This document shows positions 7,871-45,098 of a stretch of 64,000 nucleotides of DNA, piece by piece (the first letter of the stretch is position 1; the number at the start of each line of letters is the position of its first letter). Origin of the DNA: Escherichia coli (GTDB taxonomy: Bacteria; Pseudomonadota; Gammaproteobacteria; Enterobacterales; Enterobacteriaceae); NCBI RefSeq assembly GCF_048403405.1, contig NZ_CP183129.1. One strand, 5' to 3'. The translations under genes were made by a program, and so were the position numbers. Below the pieces are notes generated by a model. That model was not told the DNA's origin and ran no database searches. It saw only the letters and a program-made list of their open reading frames with translations.

Positions 7871-9343
7871 ATGGTACCTGTGGTCGCGCTTGTCGGGCGC
7901 CCTAACGTAGGAAAATCCACGTTATTTAACCGTCTAACTCGCACCCGAGATGCGCTGGTTGCGGATTTCCCGGGTCTGACTCGTGACCGTAAGTACGGTC
8001 GTGCAGAAATTGAAGGCCGTGAGTTTATCTGCATTGATACCGGCGGGATTGATGGCACAGAAGACGGTGTAGAAACTCGCATGGCGGAACAGTCGCTGCT
8101 GGCGATTGAAGAAGCGGACGTCGTACTGTTTATGGTGGATGCGCGCGCGGGCCTGATGCCGGCGGATGAAGCGATTGCTAAACATCTGCGCTCCCGTGAA
8201 AAACCGACCTTCCTGGTGGCAAACAAAACTGACGGTCTGGATCCCGATCAGGCAGTGGTTGATTTCTACTCGCTTGGTTTAGGGGAAATCTACCCGATCG
8301 CCGCGTCTCACGGTCGTGGCGTATTAAGTCTGCTGGAGCACGTGCTGCTGCCGTGGATGGAAGATCTCGCACCGCAAGAAGAAGTCGACGAAGACGCCGA
8401 ATACTGGGCGCAATTTGAAGCAGAAGAAAACGGCGAAGAAGAAGAGGAAGATGACTTCGACCCGCAAAGTCTGCCAATCAAACTGGCGATTGTGGGGCGT
8501 CCGAACGTAGGTAAGTCTACACTCACTAACCGTATTCTTGGTGAAGAGCGCGTTGTTGTTTACGACATGCCTGGCACGACGCGTGACAGCATCTACATTC
8601 CAATGGAGCGCGATGGACGTGAGTATGTACTCATTGACACCGCTGGCGTACGTAAACGCGGCAAAATCACCGATGCTGTAGAGAAATTCTCGGTAATCAA
8701 AACGTTGCAGGCCATTGAAGATGCCAACGTGGTGATGTTGGTGATTGACGCCCGCGAAGGTATTTCCGATCAGGATCTCTCGCTGCTGGGCTTTATTCTC
8801 AATAGTGGGCGCTCACTTGTCATTGTGGTGAATAAGTGGGATGGCCTGAGCCAGGATGTGAAAGAGCAGGTGAAAGAAACGCTGGACTTCCGTCTGGGCT
8901 TTATCGATTTTGCTCGTGTGCACTTTATCTCTGCCTTGCACGGCAGTGGTGTTGGTAACTTGTTTGAATCAGTGCGTGAAGCGTATGACAGCTCCACCCG
9001 TCGTGTGGGGACCTCTATGCTGACGCGCATCATGACGATGGCTGTTGAAGATCACCAACCGCCGCTGGTACGCGGTCGTCGTGTGAAGCTGAAATATGCC
9101 CACGCCGGTGGTTATAACCCGCCGATTGTGGTGATTCATGGTAACCAGGTGAAAGACCTGCCTGATTCCTACAAGCGTTACCTGATGAACTACTTCCGCA
9201 AATCGCTGGACGTAATGGGATCGCCGATTCGTATTCAGTTCAAAGAAGGGGAAAACCCGTATGCGAACAAGCGTAATACCCTGACGCCAACCCAGATGCG
9301 CAAGCGTAAGCGCCTGATGAAGCATATCAAGAAAAGTAAGTAA
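7871..9343 (+). CDS. der: ribosome-associated GTPase Der (EngA)
   Basis: Two tandem GTPase domains (GRPNVGKST twice); start chosen at ATG 7871 ([16 protein letters not shown]), the six-frame ORF extends to 7832. Confidence 0.9.
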
Positions 9344-9405
9344 TCACTTATCTGGTTTCCCTTTCCACACGGAGAGGGAAACCGAATAACACGCGAGGAG
9401 TATTT

Positions 9406-9621
9406 ATGGCACTCAACTGTCCAACCTGCAAAACCCCTCTCGAACGCAATGGCGAGACTGCCCACTGTGCAACTTGCGACAAAGACTTTACCGTCCAGGC
9501 ACTTTGCCCTGAGTGTCATCAGCCGTTACAAGTGTTAAAAGCTTGTGGTGCTGTGGACTATTTTTGCCAACATGGGCACGGTTTAATATCTAAAAAACGC
9601 GTTGAATTTGTTATTGCTTAA
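9406..9621 (+). CDS. yfgJ: zinc-ribbon protein YfgJ
   Basis: 71-aa ORF with two CxxC pairs (CPTCK...CATCDK, CPECHQ); conserved position after der. Confidence 0.8.
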   Translation: MALNCPTCKTPLERNGETAHCATCDKDFTVQALCPECHQPLQVLKACGAVDYFCQHGHGLISKKRVEFVIA

Positions 9622-9830
9622 TATCATGTGAATATATTGTTTTATCATTTATATTTAATATGTGAATGGTAAAACAATCTGTTATTAGTGGAATAACTAA
9701 TGTAATTGAGTGAAATCACTAATTTAAATAATTAAGAATATATTTATTCTTTATGACATGCCTTTCTGAATAATCAGGGATACAATATTAAAGCTTATTT
9801 TTGACTGTATCATTGTCACAGGGAAAGTGC
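9622..9830 (+). promoter_or_regulatory. strongly AT-rich intergenic/promoter region upstream of sinH-like gene
   Basis: About 200 bp of roughly 75-80% A+T immediately after core gene yfgJ; typical of horizontally acquired, H-NS-type silenced promoters. Confidence 0.4.
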
Positions 9831-12008
9831 ATGCTGCGATGGAAACGCTGTATTATTCTAACATTTATCTCTGGTGCTGCTTTCGCGGCACCAGAGATAA
9901 ATGTTAAGCAAAACGAATCGTTACCTGATTTAGGTAGCCAGGCAGCACAGCAGGATGAACAAACCAACAAGGGTAAATCGCTGAAAGAGCGCGGAGCCGA
10001 TTACGTCATCAACTCCGCCACGCAAGGGTTTGAAAACTTGACCCCTGAGGCGCTGGAATCTCAGGCCAGAAGCTATCTGCAAAGTCAAATCACCTCAACC
10101 GCACAATCTTATATTGAAGACACACTCTCTCCCTACGGTAAGGTCCGTTCGAACCTCTCCATTGGCCAGGGCGGCGATCTGGATGGCAGTTCCATCGATT
10201 ATTTTGTTCCCTGGTACGATAATCAAACCACTGTTTATTTCAGTCAATTTTCTGCGCAGCGAAAAGAAGATCGTACAATCGGGAATATTGGTCTTGGGGT
10301 AAGACATAATTTTAATGAATGGTTATTGGGTGGAAATATATTTTATGATTATGATTTTACCCGAGGACATCGCCGTTTAGGTTTAGGCGGCGAAGCGTGG
10401 ACTGATTATTTAAAATTCTCTGGCAACTATTATCATCCGCTTTCTGACTGGAAAGACTCTGAAGATTTCGACTTTTATGAAGAACGCCCTGCGCGCGGCT
10501 GGGATATTCGTGCCGAAGCCTGGTTACCTTCTTATCCGCAACTGGGAGGCAAAGTTGTCTTCGAGCAATATTACGGCGATGAAGTCGCCCTTTTTGGTAC
10601 GGATAATTTGGAGAAAGATCCCTACGCGGTAACACTTGGACTGAATTATCAACCGGTGCCATTACTAACCGTTGGGGCGGACTATAAAGCGGGGACCGGA
10701 GATAACAGCGATGTCAGCATTAATGCCACTCTTAATTATCAGTTCGGCGTTCCGCTAAAAGATCAATTGGATAGCGATAAAGTGAAAGCGGCTCACTCGT
10801 TGATGGGCAGTCGTCATGATTTTGTTGAGCGTAATAACTTTATTGTTCTGGAATACAAAGAAAAAGATCCGCTTGATGTCACCCTGTGGTTAAAAGCGGA
10901 TGCCACCAACGAGCACCCTGAGTGCGTCATTAAGGACACTCCCGAAGCGGCCGTCGGGCTGGAAAAATGTAAATGGACCATTAACGCGCTTATCAACCAC
11001 CACTACAAAATTGTCGCTGCGTCATGGCAGGCGAAAAACAATGCTGCCCGCACGCTGGTTATGCCGGTTATCAAAGAGAATACCCTGACAGAGGGTAACA
11101 ATAACCACTGGAACCTGGTGCTGCCCGCCTGGCAGTACAGCTCTGACAAAGCCGAACAAGAAAAACTCAATACCTGGCGAGTACGTCTGGCACTGGAAGA
11201 TGAAAAGGGTAACCGACAGAACTCTGGCGTGGTGGAAATCACCGTTCAGCAGGACCGTAAAATAGAGTTGATTGTTAATAACATCGCGAACGTGCCGGAA
11301 GAGAACAACCACAGCCACGAAGCCAGCGCTCAGGCAGATGGCGTTGATGGTGTGGTGATGGATCTCGATGTAACCGACAGCTTTGGCGATAACACCGACC
11401 GCAATGGCGATGCGCTGCCGGAAGATAACCTCACGCCGCAGCTTTACGACGCGCAGGACAAACGAGTGACGTTAACCAACAAGCCTTGCTCGACCGACAA
11501 CCCCTGCGTTTTTATCGCTAAACAAGATAAAGAAAAGGGCACTGTCACCCTCTCCAGTACCTTACCCGGCACCTATCGCTGGAAAGCAAAAGCTGCGCCC
11601 TACGACGACAGTAACTATGTGGATGTCACTTTCCTCGGGGCAGAAATTGGTGGGCTAAATGCATTTATCTATCGTGTGGGGGCAGCTAAACCCAGCAACC
11701 TGATAGGTAAAGATAAAGAACCGCTGCCGCTCAACAACACTTATCGATTTGTTTTGTGGCGTGACAGCAATAAAGACGGTGTCTTCCAGCAGGTCGAAAA
11801 ACTGACTGACGAAGAGATGGCGCAGTACGACTACAAGTGGGAATTTACCGGCAAGAGCATCAATGGTGAAGTGGGTGCACAGGCGAACACTTCCAATGAG
11901 GACATTGTGATTCCGGCCACTAACCGCGAAGCAGCGCAAACCTATGGCGCACAAGCGGGAGATGGCTTGCAGGGATACGGTTTACGCGTGCTGTATACCA
12001 AAAAATAA
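9831..12008 (+). CDS. sinH: intimin/invasin-like inverse autotransporter adhesin (SinH-like)
   Basis: Signal peptide, N-terminal beta-barrel-like region rich in aromatic/Gly beta-strands, C-terminal passenger; start at ATG 9831 (track ORF starts at TTG 9801). Confidence 0.75.
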   Translation: MLRWKRCIILTFISGAAFAAPEINVKQNESLPDLGSQAAQQDEQTNKGKSLKERGADYVINSATQGFENLTPEALESQARSYLQSQITSTAQSYIEDTLSPYGKVRSNLSIGQGGDLDGSSIDYFVPWYDNQTTVYFSQFSAQRKEDRTIGNIGLGVRHNFNEWLLGGNIFYDYDFTRGHRRLGLGGEAWTDYLKFSGNYYHPLSDWKDSEDFDFYEERPARGWDIRAEAWLPSYPQLGGKVVFEQYYGDEVALFGTDNLEKDPYAVTLGLNYQPVPLLTVGADYKAGTGDNSDVSINATLNYQFGVPLKDQLDSDKVKAAHSLMGSRHDFVERNNFIVLEYKEKDPLDVTLWLKADATNEHPECVIKDTPEAAVGLEKCKWTINALINHHYKIVAASWQAKNNAARTLVMPVIKENTLTEGNNNHWNLVLPAWQYSSDKAEQEKLNTWRVRLALEDEKGNRQNSGVVEITVQQDRKIELIVNNIANVPEENNHSHEASAQADGVDGVVMDLDVTDSFGDNTDRNGDALPEDNLTPQLYDAQDKRVTLTNKPCSTDNPCVFIAKQDKEKGTVTLSSTLPGTYRWKAKAAPYDDSNYVDVTFLGAEIGGLNAFIYRVGAAKPSNLIGKDKEPLPLNNTYRFVLWRDSNKDGVFQQVEKLTDEEMAQYDYKWEFTGKSINGEVGAQANTSNEDIVIPATNREAAQTYGAQAGDGLQGYGLRVLYTKK

Positions 12009-12062
12009 GATTGGCGTAAGGCCAGTCGGCCAGTCGCTGAAGGTTCATTAAGGAGAGCATCA

Positions 12063-13040
12063 ATGAAGCAGGATAAAAGACGCGGTCTGACCCGGATCGC
12101 ATTGGCGCTGGCACTGGCAGGTTATTGTGTGGCACCTGTGGCGCTGGCGGAAGAAAGCGCCTGGGTCGACAGCGGCGAAACCAATATTTTCCAGGGAACC
12201 ATTCCGTGGCTCTATTCGGAAGGGGGAAGCGCTACGACAGATGCCGACCATGTAACGTTGACTTCAGATCTAAAAGGCGCTCGCCCGACAGGTAGTGAAA
12301 CGGACAAGCGTCTTTACTCGGGTGATAAATTAACCGTAAGTTGGGAAATTGGTGATACCGAAGGCGACGTGGATCTTGGGGGATTGGGCGATAACGCAAA
12401 GACTATCGATACTATCCGCTGGATGAGCTACAAGGACGCTCAGGGTAACGATCCAAAAGAGCTGGTAACGAAGGTGACCAGTTACACCCTTACCGATGCC
12501 GACCGTGGTCGTTATATCGGTATTGAAATTACGCCAACCACGCAGACCGGTACGCCAAACGTCGGGAATGCGCTGCATCTTTATGACATTTCCACTGCCA
12601 GCGGCGGCGGAAGCGACAGCGACAACGTTGCGCCAGGGCCGGTGGTTAACCAGAACCTGAAAGTCGCCATCTTTGTTGATGGTACCAGTATCAACCTTAT
12701 CAACGGCAGCACGCCAATCGAACTTGGCAAAACCTACGTGGCCAAACTGTACTCGGATGAGAACAAAAACGGCAAGTTTGATGCGGGTACCGATGCTGAC
12801 GTTACCGCCAATTATGACTTCCGTTGGGTACTTTCTGGCAGCAGCCAGCAGCTCGGCACCTCGGGTGGTATCGTTAACTCAAGCTTCGATAATAACAATC
12901 TGGTCATCCCTGCGACCAACGAAGACGCCAGAACCAACCTTAACGGCCCTGCGCGCGATGGTAAAGAAGCTCTTACCATCCCGACCAACGGCGACGGGGT
13001 ACAGGGGTACAAACTTCACATTATTTACAAACACAAATAA
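12063..13040 (+). CDS. sinI: SinI-like secreted protein
   Basis: 325-aa ORF with signal peptide and strong RBS aaggagag; N-terminus resembles RatA N-terminus, C-terminal ~100 aa resemble SinH C-terminus (VIPATN...DG.QGY motif). Confidence 0.7.
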   Translation: MKQDKRRGLTRIALALALAGYCVAPVALAEESAWVDSGETNIFQGTIPWLYSEGGSATTDADHVTLTSDLKGARPTGSETDKRLYSGDKLTVSWEIGDTEGDVDLGGLGDNAKTIDTIRWMSYKDAQGNDPKELVTKVTSYTLTDADRGRYIGIEITPTTQTGTPNVGNALHLYDISTASGGGSDSDNVAPGPVVNQNLKVAIFVDGTSINLINGSTPIELGKTYVAKLYSDENKNGKFDAGTDADVTANYDFRWVLSGSSQQLGTSGGIVNSSFDNNNLVIPATNEDARTNLNGPARDGKEALTIPTNGDGVQGYKLHIIYKHK

Positions 13041-13051
13041 CGCGTACTCAG

Positions 13052-13116
13052 CAGCATTCCCGCAAGGGAATGCTGTTTCCGCATATTTTGCTTAATCCCG
13101 GATTAAGCAAAATATG
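13052..13116 (+). promoter_or_regulatory. hairpin plus 35-bp perfect palindrome between sinI and ratA
   Basis: cagcattccc-gcaa-gggaatgctg hairpin, then catattttgcttaatc-ccg-gattaagcaaaatatg perfect inverted repeat. Confidence 0.4.
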
Positions 13117-13160
13117 TTGATGCGACAAGCGTCCGTTTAACAACCGGTGGAGTTTCTGTC

Positions 13161-16100
13161 ATGTCCCTGACCCTGAATAAAATCCTTGTGTTATGCGCAT
13201 TGCTGATAAGCGCAATGCTGCCTGGGTGGTCATGGGCAGAATCTGCATGGCAAGACTCTTCAGATACGGTCGGCGAATTTAACGGTACCGTGCCCACCGC
13301 CGACAGTGCCAGCATACCCGTCTACCAGGGCAGTGTCTTTCTGGATCCTGCAAAGACGCATGAGGTAGCGTTTACCGCTAAACCGAGTGAATTCAGCGCG
13401 GATATTAGCGTCTCTAAATTGCTCGTCACCAATCCGCAAGACAGAGAAGGCGATATCATTTCCACCCCACGTTGGGAAAACCAAACGCCACCGACAGTAT
13501 CTTTAGTTTGGGCGGATGCCGCGACGCCGGACACCTTACTGGACCCACAGCCAGTCGCAGATCGCTCGTTTTGCGCTCAGGGACTTGCCGGGCGTTCGCT
13601 GGTCGCCTGGGCGCAGCCTGATCCCCAACAGACCATGCCGCTGTTATATTTACTCACCTCGACGGGCTATCCCTATGAAAGTGTTCTGACGCTCGCCGAT
13701 CAGAAAGTGACGCTGAAGATTGCGCCCGCGCAGGGTGACCTTATTTCCGTCAGCGCCGCGGGCTATGACGAATCCTCCGGTGCGGCGAAAACGACGGTTG
13801 GCGGCAGTATCACGTTAACGGTCACCACCAAAGATTGCGTCGGTAATGTTGTGGGGAATATTCCTTTTGTTATCAAACGCAAAGATGCTGAAAACCGCCA
13901 GGGTGTGGTGAACAATACTGCGCCGGTAAAACTGGGCACGACCGAATTAACCACCACCGCGACGGAATATCGTGGTACTACCGATGCGAATGGTGTTGCC
14001 ACGGTTACGGTCACCCAGGCCAACGGCCCTGGTGTAAAAACGCCGTTGGTCGCGAGCCTTGCGGGTATTGCTCAGGCCAGTGAAACGGCAGTGATCTTTA
14101 CCGTCCTCACCAGCCCGGATGTCCCGCAGGCTACAATGTGGGGTCATATGCCCGATACGCTGAAGGCCCGTGATTACACTTTTAGTCGACCAAAACTGGC
14201 GGCGGAAGTCGATAATGAAGACGGTACGGTTAACGATCACAATGAAACCTGGTCCACCTTTACCTGGAGCGGCGCGGATAAACATTGCGACATTTTGCCC
14301 GGAATGCGTCAGTTCGGTGCGCTGGCGACGGTGGTGCCAACGTCAGTGCAGGATGTGGCTGGTTGGCCGATGCAGGGTAATTTCTACTGGTCATCACTGG
14401 CGGGGATGAGTGGCCAGCACCATGCGGCGGATGTTTCGAACCGCAGCGAAGCGCAAAAACCGGACGATACGACGTTTATTGTGAGCTGTGTCGATAAAGA
14501 AGCGCCCGATGTTGAACCGAAGCTGGTACTGACGCCGGGCAGTTATGATTCGACGATAAAAGCGATGAAAGTAAAGGTGGGGGAAGAGGCTTCTTTACGC
14601 CTGACGATTACCGATAGCAAGAACAACGATCAGCCGCTGGCGTACTACTACTTTTCGCTGCATCTGGATGACGGCGTTAACCGTAAGAATCAAACTGACA
14701 CCGCGTGGCAGGCGAATCCGGTACAAATAGCGGGCGGCAGTAATGTCCATCAGGTTGACGCGCATACCTATGAAGGGATCACTGATGCTAACGGAGAGGC
14801 CTCTCTGACGCTGACCCAGCCAGGCGGTGTGGGGGTGAAAACTCACATCACCGCGAGAATGCGCAGCGATTTTACCGCCTCGGATGAGAAAGACGTTATT
14901 TTTACGGTGATCACCAGCCCTGATTCCGACAAAGCGCGGATGTGGGGACATATGTTGGGCATTATTGAAGCGAATAATATCTTTAAACGCCCACGGCTGG
15001 CGGATGAAACCGACAACGAACTGGGAGCAGTGCGGGAAAATAACGAAGACTGGGCGCTGTTTGATCAGAATAGCAGTATGCAGGCTGAGTGTGGTTTAGG
15101 TCATATTCCGAGCCAAAGCTCATTGCACAGTTTGTTTGCCGCACATCCAGCCAATGTCATCGGCACCGAATATGGCTGGCCAACGTTGCAAAAAGCGTAT
15201 CTTAGTGCGGTGGAAGAGACGTCGCACGCGTCGGTGAACCTGGCCACGGGCAACATCGACACCTATTCCGGCTTTAAGCAAAACTACCTTTCTTGTTCGG
15301 GCAATGAGATGGTCGCCCAGATTGCTGCGACCACCGATCATGATGTTTCCACAAGCAGCAGAGCGCAGGCTAAAGTGGGTGAAACGATTACCATGACGGT
15401 ACGCACCTTTAATGCCTTGAATAATGCGCCCGTGCCGTATACCGCGTTCACCATCACTAAAGATATGGGGAAAAATCGTCAGGGGCAGAGCACGGGTTTC
15501 GATGATCCAACCCGCGGCGCAATCGAGATGAATGGCACGCTCTACGGAACATCGCAACCGTCTTTAGTCTATGCAGGTACTACGGATGCGCAGGGTTTTG
15601 CTACTGTGGAAATTAAGCAACCGCAAGGTGTGGGCTTAGCGACGCCGCTGAATATTGCGCCTGTAAACTCCTATATTCCCAATACTGTTAATTACAATGT
15701 GATTTTCACTACGCTCACCAGTCCGGATGCGGTTGGCGCGCAGATGTGGGGGCATATGGATGAGACGATTACCGTCGATGCATTAACCTTTGCCCGACCC
15801 CGGCTGGCTGCGGAAGTGTCCAGCCCGGACGGCACATTAACGGAAAATAACGAAGTGTGGTCGCGCGTTAGCCAGGCCAACACTTCCAGCACCAGTAAAG
15901 GTGGCTGTGGTGCCAATATGCTCCCACGCCGTTCCCAGCTTAACGCGCTCTATGATGCTAACAGCGGTAACGCCGTTCAAACGGTACACGGTTGGCCAAC
16001 GCAGCGTCAGCCCTACTGGAGCAGTTCGCCCGCGGATCAGGTGCCGCATTACTACACCATAGCCCTCAACGATGGCGCGCGGACCGTTGGCGGTAGCACG

Positions 16101-19100
16101 GCGGTTTATGTCAGTTGCCTGACGACGGCTAACAATCCTGCCAGCAGCATTACGCTGGAAGTGGTGGACCCGGCGCAGTGGAACGCGGCAGCAAATGCGG
16201 CGAAGCTGAAAAAAGGCGAAACGCTACAGGTGAAGGTGACGGTAAAAGATGCTCAGGGCAATCCATTGGGTGATATGCCTTTTACGCTGAAGCGTGGCGA
16301 TGGTTATACCCGATCAAACGAAAAACACATTGCCGGTAGCGGTGATGCGCTGGTTGCGCCGGTTGTGATCAATAGTGGCCTGGCGGATGAAACTTCGCTC
16401 AATGATACCGCCGCAGCATACAGCGCGATGACCGGTAGCGATGGCACTAAAATTCTCACTATTACCCGCCCGGATACCCATGGCACAAAAACGTCGCTGA
16501 CCGCCGCGCTCTATTCAGACACAACGAAAAAAGCGACCCTCGATACCATTTTTACCGTTGTCACCAGCCCAGACAGCAATAAAGCGAAAATGTGGGGGCA
16601 TATGCCGGAAACGGTGACGGCTGCGGATGGAACGGTCTTTAAACGCCCATTATTGTTGAAAGAGTTATCCAGTACGTCGGGTCGAACAGCGATTGCAGAA
16701 GATAATGAGGACTGGGCGCAATTTACCCAAACTCAGGCGACAAGCACATCCTCTAATGGTTGTGGTAGTGAATATGTTCCCTCTCAGGCCGGGCTGGAGT
16801 CATTGTATGAAGCCAACCGCGGCAATGCGATGAAAACGGTTCAGGGCTGGCCCGTCGCCTCAAGTTACCTTACCAGCACGACAGGCAGCAGTAGTCTGGA
16901 ACAGCGTGACTTAAAGGCCGTCAATCTCAGTTCAGGCACCAGTTCGATAATTCCATCGGCCACAAAAGAACTGCTTACCTGCCAGACGACGCCGATCGTC
17001 AAGGCTAGCCAAATCGTTCTTGAGGCTGCGGACCCCACAAAATTTGACAGTACGAATAATGTTGTCAAAGCGAAAAAAGGGGAAGAAGTCGTGGTTCGCG
17101 TGACCACTAAAGATTCGCAGGGTAACCCGGTGGGAAATACCGCGTTTACGCTTAAACGTAACCTTAGCGTCAATCGGGCAAATGCGTCTACAACGGTGAC
17201 AGCAGGCGCGCTCATCGTGACGGATGCCTGGGGTAACACGCAGAGTAATTTTTCCTCAACAACAGCACTGATTTATGGCGTTACCGGCGCAGATGGTACG
17301 ACAACACTTGCACTGAAACAGGACAATACCACGGGTTTAAAAACCGAACTGACCGCCATGCTGGATACAGATAATAACGTAAAATCAATGCTTCCGGTGG
17401 TCTTTACGGTGATAACCAGCCCCGATACCCCTAAAGCAAAATTCTGGGGGCATATGGCCGAAACGATGACCGGTGCTGGCGGGCTTATTTATAAAAGACC
17501 GTTATTGCAAGATGAGCTTTCCGTTACAACCAGTCGAAGCTCTTTTCAGGAAGATGGAGAGAGCTGGTCACTGTTCTCGCCGGACCAGTCGAACAACACA
17601 TCTGTAAATGGTTGCGGTGCAGGATATGTCCCGGTTGAAAGTGAGCTGGAGTCACTGTATGCCGATGAAGGTTACGTGCCAATACATGACGTTACGGGAT
17701 GGCCTGTATCACGCGCCTATATCTCCAGTACGGTTGTTGCCTATTACACTCAAACATTTAATTTTAAAGCGGTTTCGTTAAAAACGGGTGATGGAACGGA
17801 GGTCATGTCAAGCAGTATAGGACTGCTAAGTTGTCGGGCTACCCCAGTGGCGGTGACCAGCCACATTATTGTTGAAGCGAACGATGCGACACAATTTGTC
17901 AAAGTTGACGAAACCCTCAGCGCACTAAAACGGAAAAAAGGTGACGACGCGGTGATTCGCGTGGTGACAAAAGATGCGCAGGGAAATGTCGTACCAAATG
18001 TTCCGTTTATTCTCAAACGTGAAGGATCGACAAATCGCCAGAATGTACAGTTGTCGAACAGAACTATCACTGTAATCAACGCTGCGGGAACGTCGGCAAG
18101 AGTGGATACTCCATCAATCTCCCTTTATGCGGTGACAGGTGCAGACGGGACAGCCACGTTTACGGTAAAGCAGGATGATTCTATAGGCCTGGTAACCAAT
18201 GTGTACGCTCAGGCCTATCAGTCGAGCCTGGAATCCAACAAATTACCCGTGATGTTTACCGTGATAACCAGCCCGGATACCCCCCTGGCAAGTTACTGGG
18301 GGCATATGGCGGAAACGTTCACTACGCGTTCTGGTACTGCCTTCAAACGCCCCTTACTCTCTGCTGAAAGATCGTCGGGCCAGTCGTTTATAGAAGACAA
18401 TGAAGAGTGGGCCGTGTTGAGATCGGCAACAAAGGGGGATATCGATAAAAGCGGGTGCGATGTACATTATCAACCACTGTTAAGCGAACTACAGGCATTG
18501 TACGACGAACACCCAAGTCGTGCGATAAAGACCGATCTGGGTATTCCGGTAAATAGCTACTGGTGGGCTTACGACATGGTGGCATATGCGGGTAACTGGT
18601 ACGATCAATATATTTATCTGTTAAATGGATCAAGTGGAAGAGCGTCTTCAACCACCTCGGCATTAATGCTGTGCCTGGTAAACCCTCATCCAGAGGCGGC
18701 TTCTATTGAAATGACCTCAACGGCGGAGGATGCAACGAAAACGGCCAGCAATGATGGCAGGCCCAGCGCAACAGCGAAGAAGGGAGAGGTTATCCCGATG
18801 ACTGTTACGGTGCGAGATAGCGCAGGCAATCCACTGCCAGGTGCCAGCTTTAACCTTAAACGAGGAACTGCGCTGAACCGCGCTAAAGCTGCGTACGATG
18901 CCTCTGCAGATGATCTTACCATCATACCTGTGGAACCTACTGGGGTAACGTCAATCTTGTATGGGGATGGGACGCAGGCTCTTCTGAAGACAGGGAGCGA
19001 TGGTAAAGCTACGTTTGAGGTCAGCCAGAATAGCAGTTATGGGCTGTCAACGCCGCTCAGCGCAGAACTCATGCGCGATACCTCGAAAAGCGTCACGCTG

Positions 19101-21203
19101 GATGTCATTTTCACGGTGATAACCAGCCCGGATTCGCCAAAAGCGAAATACTGGGGCCATATGCCGGAAACGTTTACCAGTTCGGCAGGCGTGACCTTCA
19201 AGCGCCCATTACTGGCAGCGGAAGCGACTACGGGGAGCTCGGTAAACGGTAATAATGAGACATGGTCATATATATATAGTACTCAAAAAGCGACGGCAGA
19301 TTGTTCGCTGGAATATCAACCGCGCCTCAGCGAATTGCAGGGGTTATATGACGATCACCCAAACGGGGCGTTAACGAAAGATCTGGGGTTGCCGATAGCG
19401 TCAGGAAACTGGTGGATTTATGAATTGCTTAACTCCAATGGTAGCTCCTGGTATTACCAGGTCTTTAACCTAAGTACGGGACGAGCATCATCCGCACTCT
19501 CTCCGGTTGCTCTAATGCTCTGCCTGGCACAGCCTCACTCTAAGCCGTCAAGCGTTACCCTGACTTCAATAGCATTTGATGAGACGAGAACCGCAAGTAA
19601 CGGCGGTACACCTTCGGCATCGGCGAAAAAGGGCGAGACAATCCCGTTAGTCGTGACAGTAAAAGACCAAAATGGCAACCTGCTGAGTGGCGAGAGCGTG
19701 ACGCTTCAGCGGGCACAGGCGAAAAGTCGTTCAGGAATTAGGCCCTCATCGTCGGCAGATGATCTTATTGTAGATGTCATCACACCGACAGCGGTCAGCA
19801 TTCCCTTTACTCAGGATACGGCAAAATGGCTTGGCTTTACCGGCAGTGATGGCACAGTGACGTTCAATGTTACGCAAAACGCCACCACCGGCCTGGCAAC
19901 GCCGTTTACGGTCTCGCTTGCACAAGATCCGCAGATCACGTCAAACCTGGACCTGATATTTACCGTGGTCACCAGCCCTGACTCCCTGGATGCCAACTAC
20001 TGGGGCCATATGCCAGAAACGGTGACAGCGGCAAATGGAACCGTCTTTGAACGACCGAAATTGTGGAAGGAACTGCCATCGACCTCCGGGGTAAATAAAA
20101 CCAATAACAATAATGAGGACTGGCCCTATTTTTCGTCAACCACTAAAGCAAATTCCAGCCTCAGCCCTTGTGAGGAAGCCCGGCAACCGTTGCTCAGCGA
20201 TATGAAGTCACTGTATCAACGTTATCCCAATAACACCCTTACGACGGAAACTGGCTGGTCAGTTTATTATTACTGGTGGGCGCAGGATAAGACTACAGAT
20301 GGTAAAAATCAGTCGCTCAATATGAAAGATGGCACAACGACATTGAATGGTAATGCCGCTTATCAGGCGTGTCTGGTGTCTGCGCGCGCGACGGTTTCCA
20401 GCGTCACACTGACCTCAACAGCGTTTGATGCTGACAGCCAGGCGGCGAAAGTGAAAAAAGGCGAAGCCATGCCCGTTACCGTGACGGTGAAAGACAGCGC
20501 CGGGAATACGGTACCGAATGTGGAATTTACTTTGAAACGTGGCGATGCATCGCCGCGTAACGCTGGGGCGACGTTGTATGGTGATGTGGTGGCGATGGAC
20601 GATCTCATCGTTCAGCCGTTATCTGGTTCGGCTGTTACGCTGAGTGAAAGCGGTAATACCATTAGTGGCATGACAGGCGCGGATGGGACGGCAAGTTTTA
20701 CGCTCCGCCAGGATAATACCCCTGGTTATAAAACGCCACTGACGGTTACTCTGGCTAATTACGCTTCCGCGACAGACACGCTGGACGCTATTTTTACGGT
20801 ACCAACCAGCCCGAATGTTTCCTCGGCGCACTTTTGGGGACATATGGCAGACACTGTAGTGGTGAATGGTAAATCGCTACATCGACCGTTGTTAACGACA
20901 GAATTGCCGTCCGGGGCTAATCCCGTATCCTCACCGATTATTAACTACGAAAACTGGGCTTCTGCACATATCATTGATGCCAGTAAATGGGATATTGCAA
21001 GGCAGTGTGGCAGCATAGAAAATGCACCGACATACAATGAATTAGAGTTGTTGCACACTGTTTTTAATTCACTGGGATGGCCGTCTTCACCAAGTTTTCC
21101 TTATTTGTCCTCTCAACAGTGTGGGATGGACGAAGGCACTGGAGCACAGGATTGTAGTATCACGCTAATGAATAAACCGGGTCTGGTGACCTGCTTCCAG
21201 TAA
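13161..21203 (+). CDS. ratA: giant repeat-containing surface protein (RatA-like)
   Basis: 2680-aa uninterrupted ORF with signal peptide and about 9 tandem ~283-aa repeats each carrying FTV(I/V)TSPD...WGHM. Confidence 0.8.
14050..20900 (+). repeat. tandem ~850-bp coding repeats inside ratA-like gene
   Basis: TSPD...WGHM motif recurs at approx. 14.10, 14.91, 15.72, 16.56, 17.41, 18.26, 19.12, 19.97, 20.80 kb. Confidence 0.75.
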
Positions 21204-21235
21204 CCAGCATGGCGCATCTGGCGTGGCCTGGGAGC

Positions 21236-21262
21236 CAGTGCCGGATGCGATGCTGGCGCATC
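21236..21262. repeat. REP-like palindromic element between convergent ratA and xseA
   Basis: gccggatgcgatgctggcgcatcttatgg resembles the enterobacterial REP consensus (GCCGGATGCG...CTTATC). Confidence 0.3.
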
Positions 21263-22669
<1,407 letters not shown>

Positions 22670-26105: not shown

Positions 26106-27356
26106 GTGCTTACCGATACAAAATTAAAAAACCTCAAGCCGCAGGACAAACTGTACAAGGTCTCCGATCGTGACGGGCTGTATGTAGCTGTGCTTACGTC
26201 AGGCACGGTCTCGTTTCGCTATGACTACCGTATCAACGGTCGCCGCGAAACACTGGTAATCGGGCAGTATGGGCGTGACGGTATCAGCCTGGCAGAAGCG
26301 CGAGAAGAACTGATTGCTGCAAAGAAGCTGCTTAAAGCAGGCCAGTCACCGGCTGCGGCTAAACGTGACGGTATCAAAAAGATTCGTGGTGCCGAGACGT
26401 TTGCGGTACATACCGACAGTTATATGAAACATGTCATCCTGGCTGACAGTACCCGCGCAATGAAGCAGGCGGTGATCGACCGTGACATACTTCCGGTTCT
26501 TGGCAACAAAATGATGACTGAAATTACCACATCGATGGTTCGTGATTTGTGTGACCGGATTGTCGAACGCGGTGGTCGGGCAACAGCAGTGCAGGCCAGG
26601 GAGATCATCAGCAGCGTATACCGTCACGCCAATGACCGTGGTCATGGTTTGTTTAATCCTGCGGCTGACATTAAACCTTCGTCTATCGCCATATTTAAAC
26701 CACGAGAGCGAACACTGACGCCAGAAGAAATTGGCCTGTTCTTCCGCACGCTGGATGCCATTGGTGCTATGGGCACTATGAAAATGGCTTTAAAGCTGGT
26801 GCTTATCACTATGGTTCGTAAAGGCGAATTCACCAATGCAACGTGGGACGAAATAGATTTTAAAAAATGGACATGGACAATTCCTTCAGACCGCATGAAG
26901 GGAAGCCGGGCGCATGTTATTTACCTGCCTAAACAGGCACAGGATATATTGGTCGGGTTGCAGATGTGCGCTGGTGGAAGTGAATATCTGGTTCCTGGTC
27001 GTTACAACTTCCGGAAGCCATTATCTAATGCCGCGCTGAACTCTCTGATCGACAGAACGGTGAAAATAATAAATGAAGATGGTGAGCATATTCAGGACTT
27101 CACCGTACATGATATGCGCCGTACAGCCAGTACGTTGTTGCATGAGGCTGGTTATCCTTCAGACTGGATTGAAAAGGCTCTGGCACATGAGCAGAAAGGT
27201 GTGCGCGCCGTATATAACAAAGCGGAATACGCCAGACAGCGCGCCTACATGTTGCAGCAGTGGGCCGATATGATTGATTCCTGGATTGACGGGGAGCATA
27301 CGGATCTGATTCCGTTCTCCCCGTCGAAGTTTGAGAAGTGGATGGCGGGAGAATAA
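26106..27356 (+). CDS. int: tyrosine integrase (P4-like family), prophage left end
   Basis: 416-aa ORF, GTG start; N-terminus MLTDTKLKNLKPQDKLYKVSDRDGLY typical of P4-type integrases; C-terminal catalytic region (HDMRRTASTLL...Y). Confidence 0.9.
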   Translation: MLTDTKLKNLKPQDKLYKVSDRDGLYVAVLTSGTVSFRYDYRINGRRETLVIGQYGRDGISLAEAREELIAAKKLLKAGQSPAAAKRDGIKKIRGAETFAVHTDSYMKHVILADSTRAMKQAVIDRDILPVLGNKMMTEITTSMVRDLCDRIVERGGRATAVQAREIISSVYRHANDRGHGLFNPAADIKPSSIAIFKPRERTLTPEEIGLFFRTLDAIGAMGTMKMALKLVLITMVRKGEFTNATWDEIDFKKWTWTIPSDRMKGSRAHVIYLPKQAQDILVGLQMCAGGSEYLVPGRYNFRKPLSNAALNSLIDRTVKIINEDGEHIQDFTVHDMRRTASTLLHEAGYPSDWIEKALAHEQKGVRAVYNKAEYARQRAYMLQQWADMIDSWIDGEHTDLIPFSPSKFEKWMAGE

Positions 27357-37988: not shown

Positions 37989-38585
37989 ATGATGCCTGCT
38001 GAACCTAAAACCTATAAACGCAAATCAACGCAATTTAAGCCGCTCACAGCAATGCAGGAGGCTTATTGCCAGTCATACATCAAAACGCCTGAAAACCAGA
38101 CTCAGGCAGCGATTAACGCAGGATTCTCCCCAAATACAGCGGCAGTTAAAGCCAGTGTCATGATGCGCGATGAACGCATTCAAAAACGGATTGCCGAGTT
38201 GATGGAGGAGCGCAACAAACGAATGCGCGTCAGTGCTGATTACGTTCTCATGCGCCTGGTGGAGATCGACCAGATGGACGTGATCGATATCCTCAACGAC
38301 GATGGGAGCCTTAAACCAATCCGCGAGTGGCCGAAAATCTGGCGCACTACGCTTAGTGGCTTTGATCTGTCATCGACCATCATGAACATGAACGAGGATT
38401 CGATAGAGACAATCCTCAAAAAAATTAAATGGCCTGACAAGGTGAAGAACCTCGAACTGATTGGTAAGCACGTCGACGTCAACGCATTCAAAGAACGCCT
38501 GGATGTTAATGTGAATGTGACAATTGCTGATCGCATAGCGGCAGCCAGGAAGCGACTCAAAGAACGTCAGGATGGTAATCAGTGA
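37989..38585 (+). CDS. terminase small subunit
   Basis: About 198 aa immediately upstream of and overlapping terminase large subunit; basic N-terminus, HTH-like segment. Confidence 0.7.
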   Translation: MMPAEPKTYKRKSTQFKPLTAMQEAYCQSYIKTPENQTQAAINAGFSPNTAAVKASVMMRDERIQKRIAELMEERNKRMRVSADYVLMRLVEIDQMDVIDILNDDGSLKPIREWPKIWRTTLSGFDLSSTIMNMNEDSIETILKKIKWPDKVKNLELIGKHVDVNAFKERLDVNVNVTIADRIAAARKRLKERQDGNQ

Positions 38586-40057
38586 CAGATACAGCGTTAT
38601 CTCCTGAAGAGCAGTTGATCGAGGATATTGCAGGGTTTACTCACGATCCGCTTGGTTATGCCCTCTATGCGTTCCCGTGGGGGGAAGAGGGTACTGAACT
38701 GGCACATGCTACCGGCCCACGTCAGTGGCAGGCTGATGCGTTCCGAGAGATACGTGATCACCTGCAGAATCCAGAGACGCGCTATCAGCCGCTTATGCTG
38801 GCACGCGCTTCTGGTCACGGTATTGGTAAATCCGCATTCATCTCAATGCTGATCAACTGGGGCATGTCCACTTGCGAGGATTGTAAGGTCGTGGTGACCG
38901 CCAACACCGACAACCAGCTACGAACGAAGACCTGGCCGGAAATTATCAAGTGGTCAAACCTTGCTATCACGAAAGACTGGTTTACCTGTACCGCTACCGC
39001 GATGTACAGCAATGACCCTGGGCACGACAAGCGGTGGCGCGCTGACGCAATCCCCTGGTCTGAGCACAACACTGAGGCGTTCGCGGGACTACACAACGAG
39101 CGCAAACGCATCATCGTGGTGTTTGATGAAGCGTCGAACATTGCGGATCTGGTGTGGGAAGTTGCCGAGGGTGCGCTTACGGACGAAGACACCGAAATCA
39201 TCTGGGTGGCGTTCGGGAACCCGACGCGTAACACCGGGCGTTTCCGTGAGTGTTTCCGCAAGTACAAACACCGCTGGAAGTGTGCGCAGATTGACAGCCG
39301 GACGGTGGAAGGCACCAACAAACAGCAGTTGCAGAAATGGGTTGATGACTACGGGGAAGACAGCGACTTCGTTAAAATCCGTGTGCGCGGCATATTCCCT
39401 GATGCATCTGAATTGCAGTTTATTCCTACCGGTCTTACTGACGAGGCAATGAAACGGGTGGTAACTGCTGCGCAGGTGGCACATGCTCCGGTGATAATCG
39501 GCGTTGACCCTGCATACTCCGGTGTTGATGACGCGGTGATATACCTGCGGCAGGGGCTGCACAGTAAGGTGCTGTGGACCGGCAACAAGACCATTGACGA
39601 TCTGATTATGGCAAAGCGTATCGCTGACTTTGAAGACCAGTATCAGGCTGACGCGGTGTTCATCGACTTCGGTTACGGAACCGGTTTGAAGTCAATCGGT
39701 GACGGCTGGGGTCGTACATGGCAACTTGTTCCGTTCGGCGGTGCGTCCACTGACCCGCAGATGCTTAACAAGCGTGGGGAGATGTTCAACTCATGTAAGA
39801 CATGGCTGAGGCTGGGCGGCATGCTGGATGACCAGGAAACAGCAGACGACCTGTCGGCGGCAGAGTACAAAGTTCGTGTGGACGGTAAAATCGTTATCGA
39901 ACCGAAGGAAGATATCAAAGAGCGTCTTGGGCGTTCGCCGGGTAAAGGCGATGCGCTACTGCTGACGTTTGCTTTCCCTGTGTCGAAGCGTCTGCGAATT
40001 CCTGGGCAGCAGAACCAGCAAGGCAAGGCCATCACAGATTATGACCCGTATGCTTAA
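38582..40057 (+). CDS. terminase large subunit
   Basis: 491-aa ORF with Walker A-like GHGIGKS and ATPase/nuclease two-domain size. Confidence 0.85.
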   Translation: MTDTALSPEEQLIEDIAGFTHDPLGYALYAFPWGEEGTELAHATGPRQWQADAFREIRDHLQNPETRYQPLMLARASGHGIGKSAFISMLINWGMSTCEDCKVVVTANTDNQLRTKTWPEIIKWSNLAITKDWFTCTATAMYSNDPGHDKRWRADAIPWSEHNTEAFAGLHNERKRIIVVFDEASNIADLVWEVAEGALTDEDTEIIWVAFGNPTRNTGRFRECFRKYKHRWKCAQIDSRTVEGTNKQQLQKWVDDYGEDSDFVKIRVRGIFPDASELQFIPTGLTDEAMKRVVTAAQVAHAPVIIGVDPAYSGVDDAVIYLRQGLHSKVLWTGNKTIDDLIMAKRIADFEDQYQADAVFIDFGYGTGLKSIGDGWGRTWQLVPFGGASTDPQMLNKRGEMFNSCKTWLRLGGMLDDQETADDLSAAEYKVRVDGKIVIEPKEDIKERLGRSPGKGDALLLTFAFPVSKRLRIPGQQNQQGKAITDYDPYA

Positions 40058-41426: not shown

Positions 41427-43106
41427 ATGGCGGAAACAACTAAAGAGCGATTGAACAAACAGTTCGCACAACTTGAAAGCGAGCGTCAGTCGTTCGAGCC
41501 GCACTGGCGCGAGTTGAGTGATTACATCAACCCGCGTGGTTCCCGCTTTCTGACTTCTGAGGTCAACCGTAACGATCGACGCAATACACGCATTATTGAT
41601 TCGACCGGGACTATGGCGGCGCGCACTCTCGCCAGCGGCATGATGTCAGGCATCACAAGCCCCGCGCGTCCGTGGTTTCGCCTGGCTACGCCTGATCCTG
41701 AAATGATGGATTATGGCCCTGTTAAGTTGTGGCTTGAGGCGGTGCAGAACCGCATGAACGATATGTTCAATAAGTCGAATCTCTATCAGTCGCTGCCGCA
41801 GTTATACGGAAGCCTCGGCACATACAGCACTGGTGCAATGGCAGTGCTGGAGGATGACGAGGACATTATTCGCACAATGCCATTCCCGATAGGCAGTTAC
41901 TACCTAGCTAACTCACCTCGTGGCAGTGTGGACACCTGTTTTCGCAAGTTCTCTATGACTGTTCGTCAGCTTGTTCAGGAGTTCGGGCTAAATAACGTCA
42001 GCGAATCCGTAAAAAGCATGTGGGAAAGCGGAACCTACGAGAAGTGGATTGAAGTGATGCATTCGGTTTACCCGAACATTGACCGCGATACATCGAAGCT
42101 GGATAGCAAGAACAAGCCATTCAAATCGGTTTATTACGAGGTTGGTGGCGATAACGACAAGTTGTTGCGTGAGTCCGGATTCGATGAGTTTCCAATTATG
42201 GCTCCGCGCTGGGAAGTTAACGGCGAAGATGTTTATGGATCATCATGCCCGGGTATGCTGGCGCTTGGACCTGTTAAGGCATTGCAGCTTCTCCAGAAGC
42301 GCAAGTCGCAGATCATCGACAAAGTGACAAACCCTCCGATGGTTGCCCCTACCACTCTCAGAACACAGAGTGTTTCGTTACTTCCTGGTGGCGTCACATA
42401 CGTAGATCAACTGACTGGACAGGAAGGATTAAGGCCTGTTTATCAGGTTAACCCTAACACTGCGGATTTAATCAGCGACATCCAAGATACGCGGCAGACC
42501 ATCAACAGCGCCTACTTTGTCGATCTGTTCATGATGTTGCAGAACATCAATACCCGCTCGATGCCTGTTGAAGCGGTGATCGAAATGAAAGAAGAAAAAC
42601 TTCTGATGTTGGGGCCGGTTCTGGAGCGTCTGAACGACGAATGTCTTAATCCTCTCATTGACCGCGCTTTCTCGATGATGGTGCGTAAAAACATGCTGCC
42701 GCCACCGCCTGACGCGATGGAAGGCATGCCCCTGAAGGTCGAATACATTTCCGTCATGGCTCAGGCGCAGAAGTCTATCGGCCTGTCCAGTCTGGCGTCC
42801 ACGGTTAACTTCATTGGTCAACTTGCGCAAGCGAAACCAGAAGCTCTCGACAAACTCAATGTTGATCAGGCGATCGATGCATTCGCTGATATGTCCGGAG
42901 TGTCTCCAACCGTCATTGTTCCGCAGGAACAGGTTGAGCAGGCTCGCCAGCAACGGGCACAGCAGCAACAGCAGCAACAAATGATGGCGATGGGAATGGA
43001 GGCGGCACAGGGCGCCAAGACGCTAAGCGAAGCTAAAACTTCGGATCCGAGTGTTTTGTCAGCTATGGCGAATGCAGTTAGTGGTCAGGGTGGGCAATCA
43101 CAATGA
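41427..43106 (+). CDS. portal (head-to-tail connector) protein, podovirus type
   Basis: 559-aa ORF; Gln-rich C-terminal tail (QQRAQQQQQQQMMAMGMEAAQG) as in T7-type portal proteins; position after terminase. Confidence 0.8.
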   Translation: MAETTKERLNKQFAQLESERQSFEPHWRELSDYINPRGSRFLTSEVNRNDRRNTRIIDSTGTMAARTLASGMMSGITSPARPWFRLATPDPEMMDYGPVKLWLEAVQNRMNDMFNKSNLYQSLPQLYGSLGTYSTGAMAVLEDDEDIIRTMPFPIGSYYLANSPRGSVDTCFRKFSMTVRQLVQEFGLNNVSESVKSMWESGTYEKWIEVMHSVYPNIDRDTSKLDSKNKPFKSVYYEVGGDNDKLLRESGFDEFPIMAPRWEVNGEDVYGSSCPGMLALGPVKALQLLQKRKSQIIDKVTNPPMVAPTTLRTQSVSLLPGGVTYVDQLTGQEGLRPVYQVNPNTADLISDIQDTRQTINSAYFVDLFMMLQNINTRSMPVEAVIEMKEEKLLMLGPVLERLNDECLNPLIDRAFSMMVRKNMLPPPPDAMEGMPLKVEYISVMAQAQKSIGLSSLASTVNFIGQLAQAKPEALDKLNVDQAIDAFADMSGVSPTVIVPQEQVEQARQQRAQQQQQQQMMAMGMEAAQGAKTLSEAKTSDPSVLSAMANAVSGQGGQSQ

Positions 43107-44105: not shown

Positions 44106-45098
44106 ATGACAATGGCTGTTAAAGGCTTAACTGCGCTAACGCTGGCTGACTGGGGTAAGCGCGTCGATCCAAACGGGAAAGTCGATAAGATTATCGAGCT
44201 TCTCGGTCAAACTAACCCGATCCTTCAGGATATGCCTTTTGTCGAAGGGAACCTTCCTACCGGACACCGAACCACCATTCGTTCTGGTTTACCTTCAGCT
44301 ACCTGGCGTTTGCTGAACTATGGTGTACAGCCAAGCAAATCAACCACAGTGCAGGTCACCGATTCCGTTGGCATGCTGGAAACCTATGCTGAAGTCGATA
44401 AGTCACTGGCTGATCTGAACGGTAATACCGCCGAATTCCGCCTGTCTGAAGACCGCGCATTTATTGAAGCGATGAATCAGCAGATGGCGCAGACACTGTT
44501 TTATGGTGATTCCAGCGTTAACCCTCAGCAGTTTATGGGACTGTCCTCCCGCTATTCCAGCCTGTCTGCGGGTAATGCTCAGAACATCATTGATGCTGGT
44601 GGCACGGGTACAGATAACACCTCAATCTGGTTAGTGGTGTGGGGCGAAAACACCGTGCATGGCATCTTCCCGAAAGGGCAGAAGGCTGGCATCCAGATGG
44701 AAGATAAAGGCCAGGTGACACTGGAAGATGCGAATGGCGGCAAGTACGAAGGCTACCGTACCCATTACAAATGGGACAACGGACTTGCTCTGCGTGACTG
44801 GCGTTATGTTGTTCGCATTGCAAACATCTATGTCAGCAATCTTTCAGAACCTTCCTCTGCCGCAAATATTGCGAAGTTGATGGTTAAAGCACTGCATCGC
44901 ATTCCAAATCGTGGCATGGGTCGCCCGGTGTTCTACATGAACCGCACTGTAGGCCAGGCTCTTGATCTGCAATCTCTGGAGAAAACATCTCTGGCGATCA
45001 GCGTAAAAGAGACAGAAGGCGAGTGGTGGACTTCATTCCGTGGTGTACCAATCCGTGAAACTGATGCGCTTCTGGAAACAGAAGCCCGCGTGGTGTAA
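44106..45098 (+). CDS. major capsid protein
   Basis: 330-aa ORF in canonical position after scaffold; size as in podovirus MCPs; followed by strong terminator. Confidence 0.75.
   Translation: MTMAVKGLTALTLADWGKRVDPNGKVDKIIELLGQTNPILQDMPFVEGNLPTGHRTTIRSGLPSATWRLLNYGVQPSKSTTVQVTDSVGMLETYAEVDKSLADLNGNTAEFRLSEDRAFIEAMNQQMAQTLFYGDSSVNPQQFMGLSSRYSSLSAGNAQNIIDAGGTGTDNTSIWLVVWGENTVHGIFPKGQKAGIQMEDKGQVTLEDANGGKYEGYRTHYKWDNGLALRDWRYVVRIANIYVSNLSEPSSAANIAKLMVKALHRIPNRGMGRPVFYMNRTVGQALDLQSLEKTSLAISVKETEGEWWTSFRGVPIRETDALLETEARVV

Follow-up and report, generated by a model that had tools for sequence, protein, structure and literature searches.

The window analysed here, a 64,000-nt stretch of the Escherichia coli contig NZ_CP183129.1, contains sinH, sinI and a large RatA-like gene in the same orientation (Table 1). 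The RatA-like reading frame is intact in the ORF list and its translation, and its RefSeq entry, WP_000059872.1, is named "adhesion domain-containing protein". The protein matched the NCBIfam RatA-like equivalog PRK15316 with 5382 bits against a cutoff of 3870, and its residues 1–2680 lay on profile positions 1–2683 of 2683. The sinH-sinI-ratA synteny was retained in every locus examined. In some genomes, ratA is disrupted by IS elements or frameshifts. The spacer between sinI and ratA is 120 nt long with two hairpins, and a promoter and terminator scan of 9300–13300 returned sites no more numerous than in shuffled sequence.

Table 1. Features of the sinH-sinI-ratA locus, with positions in the window
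Feature	Position	Strand	Evidence or remark
sinH, intimin-like inverse autotransporter, putative translocator	9801..12008	+	Pfam IAT_beta E 1.8e-108, RefSeq; RefSeq start at window 9831
sinI, barrel-less partner associated with the autotransporter	12063..13040	+	RefSeq; C-terminus 36% identical to SinH C-terminus, E 4e-13
RatA-like adhesin gene, 2680 aa, stop codon included	13161..21203	+	ORF list, PRK15316, WP_000059872.1
Predicted Sec signal peptide, aa 1-26, cut before ES	13161..13238	+	Sequence inference: basic n-region, hydrophobic core, SWA cleavage motif
Non-repeat N-terminal region, aa 27-213, starting ESAWxDSxxT..FxGTVP	13239..13799	+	No Pfam hit, unmatched by unit HMM
Repeat unit 1 (BIg21 + InvE_AD)	13800..14600	+	BIg21 E 1.3e-27, InvE_AD E 4.8e-29; unit HMM
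Repeat unit 2	14601..15404	+	BIg21 8.8e-25, InvE_AD 2.4e-30
Repeat unit 3	15405..16250	+	BIg21 4.6e-21, InvE_AD 3.8e-35; weak Lcl_C match
Repeat unit 4	16251..17102	+	Within modelled stretch aa 1004-1301
Repeat unit 5	17103..17954	+	Pfam domains
Repeat unit 6	17955..18809	+	Pfam domains
Repeat unit 7	18810..19658	+	Pfam domains
Repeat unit 8	19659..20492	+	Pfam domains
Repeat unit 9, shorter	20493..21200	+	BIg21 3.9e-19, InvE_AD 3.2e-17 (profile positions 1-106 of 136)
Junction motif copy 1 of 9, encoding IFTVxTSPDxxxAxxWGHM	14094..14150	+	57-nt repeat family
Deletion hot word ACGGTGATAACCAGCCC, motif copy 5	17406..17422	+	Crossover partner of 18261-18274 (one-unit loss) and 19113-19129 (two-unit loss)
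Crossover word ACCAGCCC, motif copy 6	18267..18274	+	Partner 19971-19978 in copy 8; two-unit loss, variant L009
Crossover word TAATGCT, ALMLCL block of adhesion domain	18664..18670	+	Partner 19513-19519; one-unit loss, strain KE55
Hypervariable cassette, units 5-8	17150..20400	+	200-nt identity profile vs KKo009-type allele

An earlier note on this DNA had described nine near-periodic repeats of ~283 aa, with a motif recurring about every 850 bp. Both statements were confirmed. A regular expression for F[TV]VxTSPD..WGHM found nine copies in the RatA-like reading frame, starting at aa 313, 581, 849, 1131, 1415, 1699, 1984, 2267 and 2545 (nt 14097 to 20793). Motif-to-motif distances were 268, 268, 282, 284, 284, 285, 283 and 278 aa, a range of 268–285 aa or 804–855 nt. 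The DNA repeat search recovered a 57-nt family of nine copies at 14094, 14898, 15702, 16548, 17400, 18252, 19107, 19956 and 20790. Periodic self-similarity, which had been set beforehand as the test of the claim, was present: the mean BLOSUM62 self-score of the protein peaked at -0.33 at a lag of 284 aa, well above the maxima of 200 shuffles, which averaged -0.627 (sd 0.017, largest -0.577).

Pfam detected nine BIg21 (E 7e-211) and nine InvE_AD (E 3e-282) stretches. Every period holds one of each in alternation, with each domain at E <= 1e-16, as in the BIg21/InvE_AD (DUF823/DUF824) repeat adhesins. The earlier description needs two refinements: periods 1 and 2 measure 268 aa, not 283 aa, and the last unit is only 236 aa. 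Unit 9 is shorter because the protein stops within or just after its adhesion domain. Tandem Repeats Finder, which handles periods of up to 500 nt, returned trivial 8–10 nt repeats alone and no array with a period of ~850 nt over 12000–22500, and the direct-repeat families found in the gene by the DNA repeat search were only 60–77% identical. Therefore, the periodicity is visible mainly at the protein level. It probably reflects how a known candidate for a giant adhesin is built from domains, namely the RatA-like protein that the sinH-sinI-ratA (ila, CS54-like) cluster of E. coli encodes. RefSeq, Pfam and NCBIfam already list the gene, the family to which it belongs and the repeated domains, and the repeat array is ordinary and already known.

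In each module, an Ig-like BIg21 domain is followed by InvE_AD, an adhesion domain resembling C-type lectins, and FTVxTSPD...WGHM is the conserved connector at their junction. The model of aa 1004–1301, which spans unit 4, showed the fold of the Ig and adhesion domains of InvE. In this model, the connector motif is the last Ig strand running into the adhesion domain, with strand 121–134 continuing to strand 143–145. The T, S, P, A, W, G, H and M of the junction motif were invariant across 34 diverse units, which had TSP, WGHM and two Cys in common. The tip of Yersinia pseudotuberculosis InvE (PDB 5n40) is built from the same domain pair. However, InvE belongs to the inverse autotransporters, has a barrel of its own and ends in a single adhesion domain, whereas the RatA-like protein lacks a barrel and carries nine such domains, each following an Ig domain. 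Pfam found no IAT_beta domain in the 2680 aa, which places the protein outside the inverse autotransporters (intimin/invasin, type Ve). Its N-terminus also lacks the TPS (haemagglutination activity) domain of TpsA proteins, and the first 213 aa gave no Pfam hit at E <= 0.01.

Salmonella enterica RatA and RatB, encoded in the CS54 island and described as DUF823/DUF824 repeat adhesins, contain the same repeated BIg21 and InvE_AD module and have the same neighbours sinH, sinI and xseA. This relationship to CS54 has been stated previously (PMC3739510 and PMC12928451). The RatB and RatA profiles matched the first ~1450–1480 aa of the E. coli protein with 2273 and 2094 bits, below the equivalog cutoffs of 4079 (PRK15314) and 3700 (PRK15315), respectively. 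By these profile matches, the E. coli protein is a paralogue or relative and not an equivalog. The Salmonella RatA and RatB profiles are 1860 and 2435 aa long, compared to 2683 for the RatA-like profile, and would thus correspond to fewer units. Unlike the CS54 island, the E. coli cluster has no shdA or ratB.

The units shared 29–48% aa identity and 42–54% nt identity in pairwise comparisons. The nucleotide values were taken from a codon-threaded alignment; the ~70% from a global DNA alignment with free gaps is misleading. The longest exact DNA word common to units was 18 nt, so the near-identical DNA repeats of a contingency-type gene are absent. Across four allele families, unit i of one allele matched unit i of another, which indicates that the array is old and not homogenised, with no concerted evolution. 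Among 120 cluster representatives, no pair of units within a protein was more than 53% identical, and thus no recent expansion was seen. Judged from these alignments, the nine copies appear to be ancient paralogues, each position having its own orthologue in other alleles, and nothing indicates free recombination among them. For work on ExPEC adhesins or SinH-based vaccines, it may be of modest use that the modules are positionally conserved paralogues and not interchangeable repeats.

The copy number was compared across strains with a unit HMM; the strict motif regular expression under-counted diverged alleles. E. coli and E. albertii together supplied the 120 cluster representatives, of which 46 had nine units, about 49 eight, about 23 seven and one 11, and in this respect the earlier note was right that the repeat number may differ between strains. 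All diverged allele families, and E. albertii as well, have nine units. Almost every strain has nine copies; in a small number, in-register deletion has removed one or two of them. At least 11 representatives were nine-unit alleles minus exactly one or two periods in frame (272–287 or 568–569 aa). Their flanks were mostly 96–100% identical to the nine-unit allele, and three were more diverged downstream of the gap.

The frequency of losses was gauged by junction-specific queries of complete genomes, within a total of 1736 carrier genomes. For the three junctions queried, the fused form was found in 0/378, 1/378 and 2/560 complete genomes, and since these censuses cover three known junctions only, they give a lower bound for the total frequency of 8-unit alleles. 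Frequent copy-number change among close relatives, as in contingency-type genes, was therefore not observed at these junctions. It is very improbable that the 8- and 7-unit forms arose as artefacts of assembly, or that they are ancestral and the nine-unit form arose by insertion. Several variants are singletons from short-read Logan or ENA assemblies, which would suit an artefact, but three occur in complete chromosomes (KE55, FDAARGOS_1298 and BEN5202) and variant P0050 was recorded in 65 blocks of the sequence collection. The nine units of all diverged families and E. albertii also speak against these readings, as do the hybrid units of the variants, which are flanked by sequence nearly identical to a nine-unit allele.

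The earlier note had also considered the gene prone to recombinational expansion or contraction and to assembly errors. That the repeat number often expands and contracts between strains in a recombination-prone array and confuses assemblers is unlikely. Variants with 7, 8 and 11 units exist and their junctions are located in the motif, as such an array would predict, and the claim is partly supported in that contractions do occur. However, they are rare, no homogenisation between units and no recent duplication or expansion was seen, ordinary homologous recombination would need units far less diverged than these, and the 7-unit allele was exactly 6420 nt in 43 of 48 carrier genomes. Collapse during assembly is not expected from the identities given above, as assemblers with k >= 21 cannot join via words of <= 18 nt. 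The gene of the window was 100% identical over 8043 nt to the TUM14771 complete genome, and the full-length gene (8043–8052 nt) was present in 16/16 sampled genomes with the window-type or KKo009-type allele. Full length was likewise seen in every sampled genome that carried a nine-unit allele. Therefore, the count of nine is reliable here and the long-read confirmation advised earlier is unnecessary. The annotation is hardly changed.

Tandem repeats that are nearly identical in DNA and often change in number are known from the alpha C and Rib proteins of group B Streptococcus and from Bap-type adhesins. The RatA-like protein resembles them as a large, putative surface protein of tandem domain repeats whose number can be altered by in-register deletion. 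Nevertheless, it differs from them in the 42–54% identity of its repeats, in the rarity of changes and in that only losses were seen.

Five losses were mapped at the nucleotide level. Their junction words were 14, 17, 8, 7 and 13 nt long, and four of the five lay inside the motif. Variants L006 and L008, whose junctions involve the hot word of motif copy 5, had 0 mismatches to the window around the junction. These junctions are consistent with a mechanism in which purifying selection on the connector would preserve identical DNA words of 8–17 nt, in register and 0.85 or 1.7 kb apart. A rare deletion between such words would take out precisely one module or two and fuse the ends into a module that is hybrid yet intact, yielding occasional 8- and 7-unit alleles against the nine-unit norm. 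Judging by the junction lengths, the deletions were probably RecA-independent slippage or short-homology events. The survey took in intact proteins, and in-frame, in-register events are thus over-represented. Strain 14EC033 carries an 835-nt deletion that is out of frame, about 9–10 codons out of register and located at a 6-nt microhomology. On these grounds, unequal crossing-over was rejected for this strain, and its deletion is an illegitimate one that yielded a pseudogene. The natural 8- and 7-unit alleles from clean in-register connector deletions offer ready-made length variants for functional tests.

The 200-nt identity profile against the KKo009-type allele showed 60–79% nt identity in units 5–8 and 95–100% in the flanks. 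Between the alleles, the aa identity per unit was 68–71% inside this region, compared to 97–100% outside. Units 5–8 are thus a hypervariable cassette with sharp boundaries, probably swapped between alleles, and this pattern fits the expectation for a part of the protein that is exposed and under immune selection.

Immediately behind their signal peptides, mature SinI and the RatA-like protein have the short N-terminal motif W-x(5-8)-T-x(2-3)-[FI]-x-G-T-[VI]-P in common, and it co-varies between the two proteins at each locus. In BLASTP, the match between the RatA N-terminal region and SinI was limited to the initial ~45 aa (E 0.004), and the same region gave no match to SinH (E > 1). A two-partner hypothesis for Rat-like proteins has been published (PMC4943183, PMC6714894), and they were explicitly proposed as two-partner substrates of inverse autotransporters (Heinz et al. 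2016, PMC4943183). In the ZirT system, an inverse-autotransporter gene is likewise followed by barrel-less genes, zirS and zirU, whose products have signal peptides and Ig-type domains. At about tenfold the size of ZirS or ZirU, the RatA-like protein is a proposed substrate. By analogy with the dependence of ZirS/ZirU on ZirT, the protein would probably be exported by Sec and then presented on the surface or released with the aid of the co-encoded SinH. It could then serve as a long multivalent adhesin.

A more specific proposal, which we offer tentatively from the sequence comparisons, is that the common SinI/RatA N-terminal signal targets both proteins to the SinH barrel. The sinH-sinI-ratA cluster might then genuinely be a "type Ve two-partner" system that exports a multi-lectin fibre of 2680 aa, with selection tuning its length (7–11 modules) and its antigenic face (the unit 5–8 cassette).

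The RatA-like protein might instead be independent of SinH, being periplasmic, released otherwise or poorly expressed, with modules that serve, for example, glycan binding in the biofilm matrix and not host adhesion. We consider this possible but rather doubtful. It would agree with a protein that has no barrel, TPS domain or recognisable secretion domain, with the hairpins in the sinI-ratA spacer and the reported co-transcription of sinH with sinI only (PMC12525524), with biofilm formation mediated by the SinH orthologue IatB without the downstream gene (PMC6714894), and with the disrupted ratA copies. Independence from SinH is opposed by the retained synteny and by the N-terminal motif co-varying within the locus. 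Furthermore, deletion of ila genes was reported to attenuate UPEC, as stated in PMC12928451 with its reference 116 as the source.

The window sequence is E. coli chromosome, and its 8043-nt RatA-like ORF was 100% identical to the counterpart in strain TUM14771. In the complete genome of that strain, the genes run in the order der, a zinc-ribbon gene, sinH, sinI, the RatA-like gene, xseA, guaB and guaA. The 2680-aa product matched the NCBIfam equivalog PRK15316 'RatA-like protein' over its full length (5382 bits; cutoff 3870), and the cutoffs of the Salmonella RatA and RatB equivalogs were not reached in the NCBIfam profile search. Of 5426 complete E. coli genomes, 1736 carried a match to the gene, and every match was chromosomal. 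The genes sinH, sinI and ratA form the three-gene 'ila' cluster, which is related to the Salmonella CS54 island (PMC12928451, PMC3739510).

The nine periodic repeats with a recurring motif described in the earlier note were borne out. The motif F[TV]VxTSPD..WGHM occurred in nine copies from aa 313 to 2545, its 57-nt DNA block was recovered as a nine-copy family in the DNA repeat search, and Pfam detected nine BIg21 and nine InvE_AD domains as a single pair per period. The motif runs from the end of BIg21 through the start of InvE_AD. Self-similarity was clearly periodic, with a BLOSUM62 autocorrelation maximum at a lag of 284 aa, well beyond 200 shuffles. A regular period of about 283 aa holds for the array overall, but not for the first two periods (268 aa each) or for unit 9, which is shorter than the others; motif spacings were 268, 268, 282, 284, 284, 285, 283 and 278 aa. 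Residues 1-213 were not a repeat unit by Pfam and the unit HMM.

Residues 208-422 matched the solved structure 5n40 (Yersinia pseudotuberculosis InvE) in sequence with an E value of 1.6e-29. An AlphaFold2 model of unit 4, for which 34 diverse units were aligned, reached a pLDDT of 91.5 and a pTM of 0.83; positions invariant among the 34 units included TSP, WGHM, several charged and aromatic residues, and two cysteines. Each period therefore joins an Ig domain to an adhesion domain in an invasin-tip-like pair, with the motif as connector. The nine-repeat feature is a real, well-annotated domain array of a known adhesin family.

Units were 29-48% identical to one another in protein and 42-54% in codon-threaded DNA. 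In four allele families, the best match of each unit was the unit at the same position in the other allele, which argues that the array is old and that its units are not being homogenised. No unit pair within one protein exceeded 53% identity among 120 cluster representatives, so recent duplication left no sign. Efficient RecA-dependent exchange in E. coli requires about 25 bp or more of identity, which the units do not offer. The longest exact DNA word common to any two units was 18 nt (at 18261 and 19116); because identical stretches are this short, k-mer assemblers should not collapse the units. For the window, the suspected assembly error gives no cause for concern.

Homologues from E. coli and E. 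albertii in the non-redundant protein collection fell into discrete length classes. Counted by the unit HMM in the 120 representatives, nine units occurred in 46, including every very large cluster, eight in about 49, seven in about 23 and 11 in one. Repeat number thus differs between some strains, as the earlier note had thought possible, and this variation exceeds what unit divergence would suggest. The seven-unit allele of the O145:H28 lineage (48 complete genomes; exactly 6420 nt in 43) is old. The 11-unit protein (3264 aa; L011 3501-13295, from Logan ERR10767356) lies in sinH-sinI-ratA-xseA-guaB synteny. Its two extra units share no more than 53% identity with any other unit and are also old. 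The adjoining xseA has about 88% identity to that of E. coli, so the source may be another Escherichia lineage.

Eleven representatives were nine-unit alleles with an in-frame loss of exactly 272-287 or 568-569 aa that left a hybrid unit, in a protein-based view that favours in-frame events. Their flanks were mostly 96-100% identical to a nine-unit allele, and three were more diverged 3' of the gap. DNA of five of these variants was mapped at the junctions against the parent allele; four junctions lay inside the 57-nt motif, which makes up less than 7% of one period. In strain 14EC033 (L005 3001-8586), an out-of-frame deletion of 835 nt with 6-nt microhomology inactivated the gene, leaving a pseudogene; this case illustrates the bias of the protein-based view. 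The junction lengths suggest a putative RecA-independent deletion pathway. Selection on the inter-domain connector probably preserves short stretches of in-register DNA identity, across which rare short-homology deletions would cut out whole modules cleanly, and only such clean deletions would leave a functional protein.

The frequency of losses was determined with 400-nt queries across fused junctions, which give one full-length match in a deletion genome and two half matches in a parent genome. Fused junctions of the window-type allele were found in 0 of 378 and 1 of 378 complete genomes (strain KE55), and that of the KKo009-type allele in 2 of 560 (FDAARGOS_1298 and BEN5202). All sampled genomes that carry a nine-unit allele had the gene at full length. 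Therefore, the stable state is nine units, and contraction occurs only rarely. The proposed recombination-prone array was right in that unit number differs in some strains and breaks fall at the motif, but wrong in degree and mechanism. The instability concern is largely unfounded for the window, while rare in-register losses are present in the population.

Units 5-8 showed only 60-79% nucleotide identity to strain KKo009 (L004), with sharp bounds, compared to 95-100% from sinH to about 17100 and again between about 20400 and the stop codon. They form a hypervariable cassette, which looks like the outcome of allelic replacement or of diversifying selection acting on modules in the central and distal parts. 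The majority of mapped deletions were also located there. The neighbouring housekeeping gene xseA was only 83-95% identical between these two E. coli strains, although the sinH, sinI and ratA flanks were 95-100%, which hints at recombination breakpoints or imported DNA beyond the island.

Features of the window and junctions of five unit-loss variants
Feature	Window position	Loss (nt)	Identical junction word	Location
RatA-like ORF (+)	13161-21203
N-terminal motif, SinI aa 29-48	12147-12206
N-terminal motif, RatA-like aa 27-45	13239-13295
sinI-ratA spacer	13041-13160
Units 5-8	17150-20400
xseA	21263-22639
Loss variant L006		852	GTGATAACCAGCCC (14 nt)	in motif
Loss variant L007		849	TAATGCT (7 nt)	in another conserved block
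Loss variant L008		1707	ACGGTGATAACCAGCCC (17 nt)	in motif
Loss variant L009		1704	ACCAGCCC (8 nt)	in motif
Loss variant L010		852	CTGGGGGCATATG (13 nt, WGHM codons)	in motif
Integrase	26106-27356			prophage
Terminase large subunit	38582-40057			prophage
Head-tail adaptor family match	41427-43106			prophage
Major head protein	44106-45098			prophage
Tail protein	46912-49383			prophage
Large internal virion or transglycosylase-like proteins	50422-56558			prophage
Tailspike	61146-63797			prophage

The RatA-like protein has a signal-peptide-like N-terminus, and Pfam detected no beta-barrel or TPS domain in it; an inverse-autotransporter barrel was found in SinH, encoded two genes upstream. Taking ZirT and ZirS/ZirU as the analogous system, Heinz et al. 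proposed that such barrels have Rat-like proteins as substrates (PMC4943183), and Goh et al. raised the same possibility for IatB, the E. coli SinH orthologue (PMC6714894). The function of the RatA-like protein, with putative SinH-linked export, is inferred. The mature N-termini of SinI and the RatA-like protein had the motif W-x(5-8)-T-x(2-3)-[FI]-x-G-T-[VI]-P in common (window, L002 and L003) and co-varied per locus (ESAW/ESAW in the window, GQWQ/GQWQ in O145:H28). The motif may be a shared signal by which SinH recognises or exports both proteins; it is compatible with a common recognition step and is no proof of it. The sinI-ratA spacer contained two hairpins, GCATTCCC-GCAA-GGGAATGC and TTTTGCTTAATCC-CGG-ATTAAGCAAAA, and a consensus scan of 9300-13300 gave no terminator or promoter signals above chance.

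The RatA-like gene was inactivated in some further genomes (hits H93, H110, H34 and H213): IS3, IS1 and IS4-family insertions were seen, and H213 carried a large deletion that reaches sinH. sinH itself was frameshifted in O145:H28 strain 12E115. Just 3' of guaA, a prophage runs from 26106 to the window end (64000), and its gene set looks podovirus-like.
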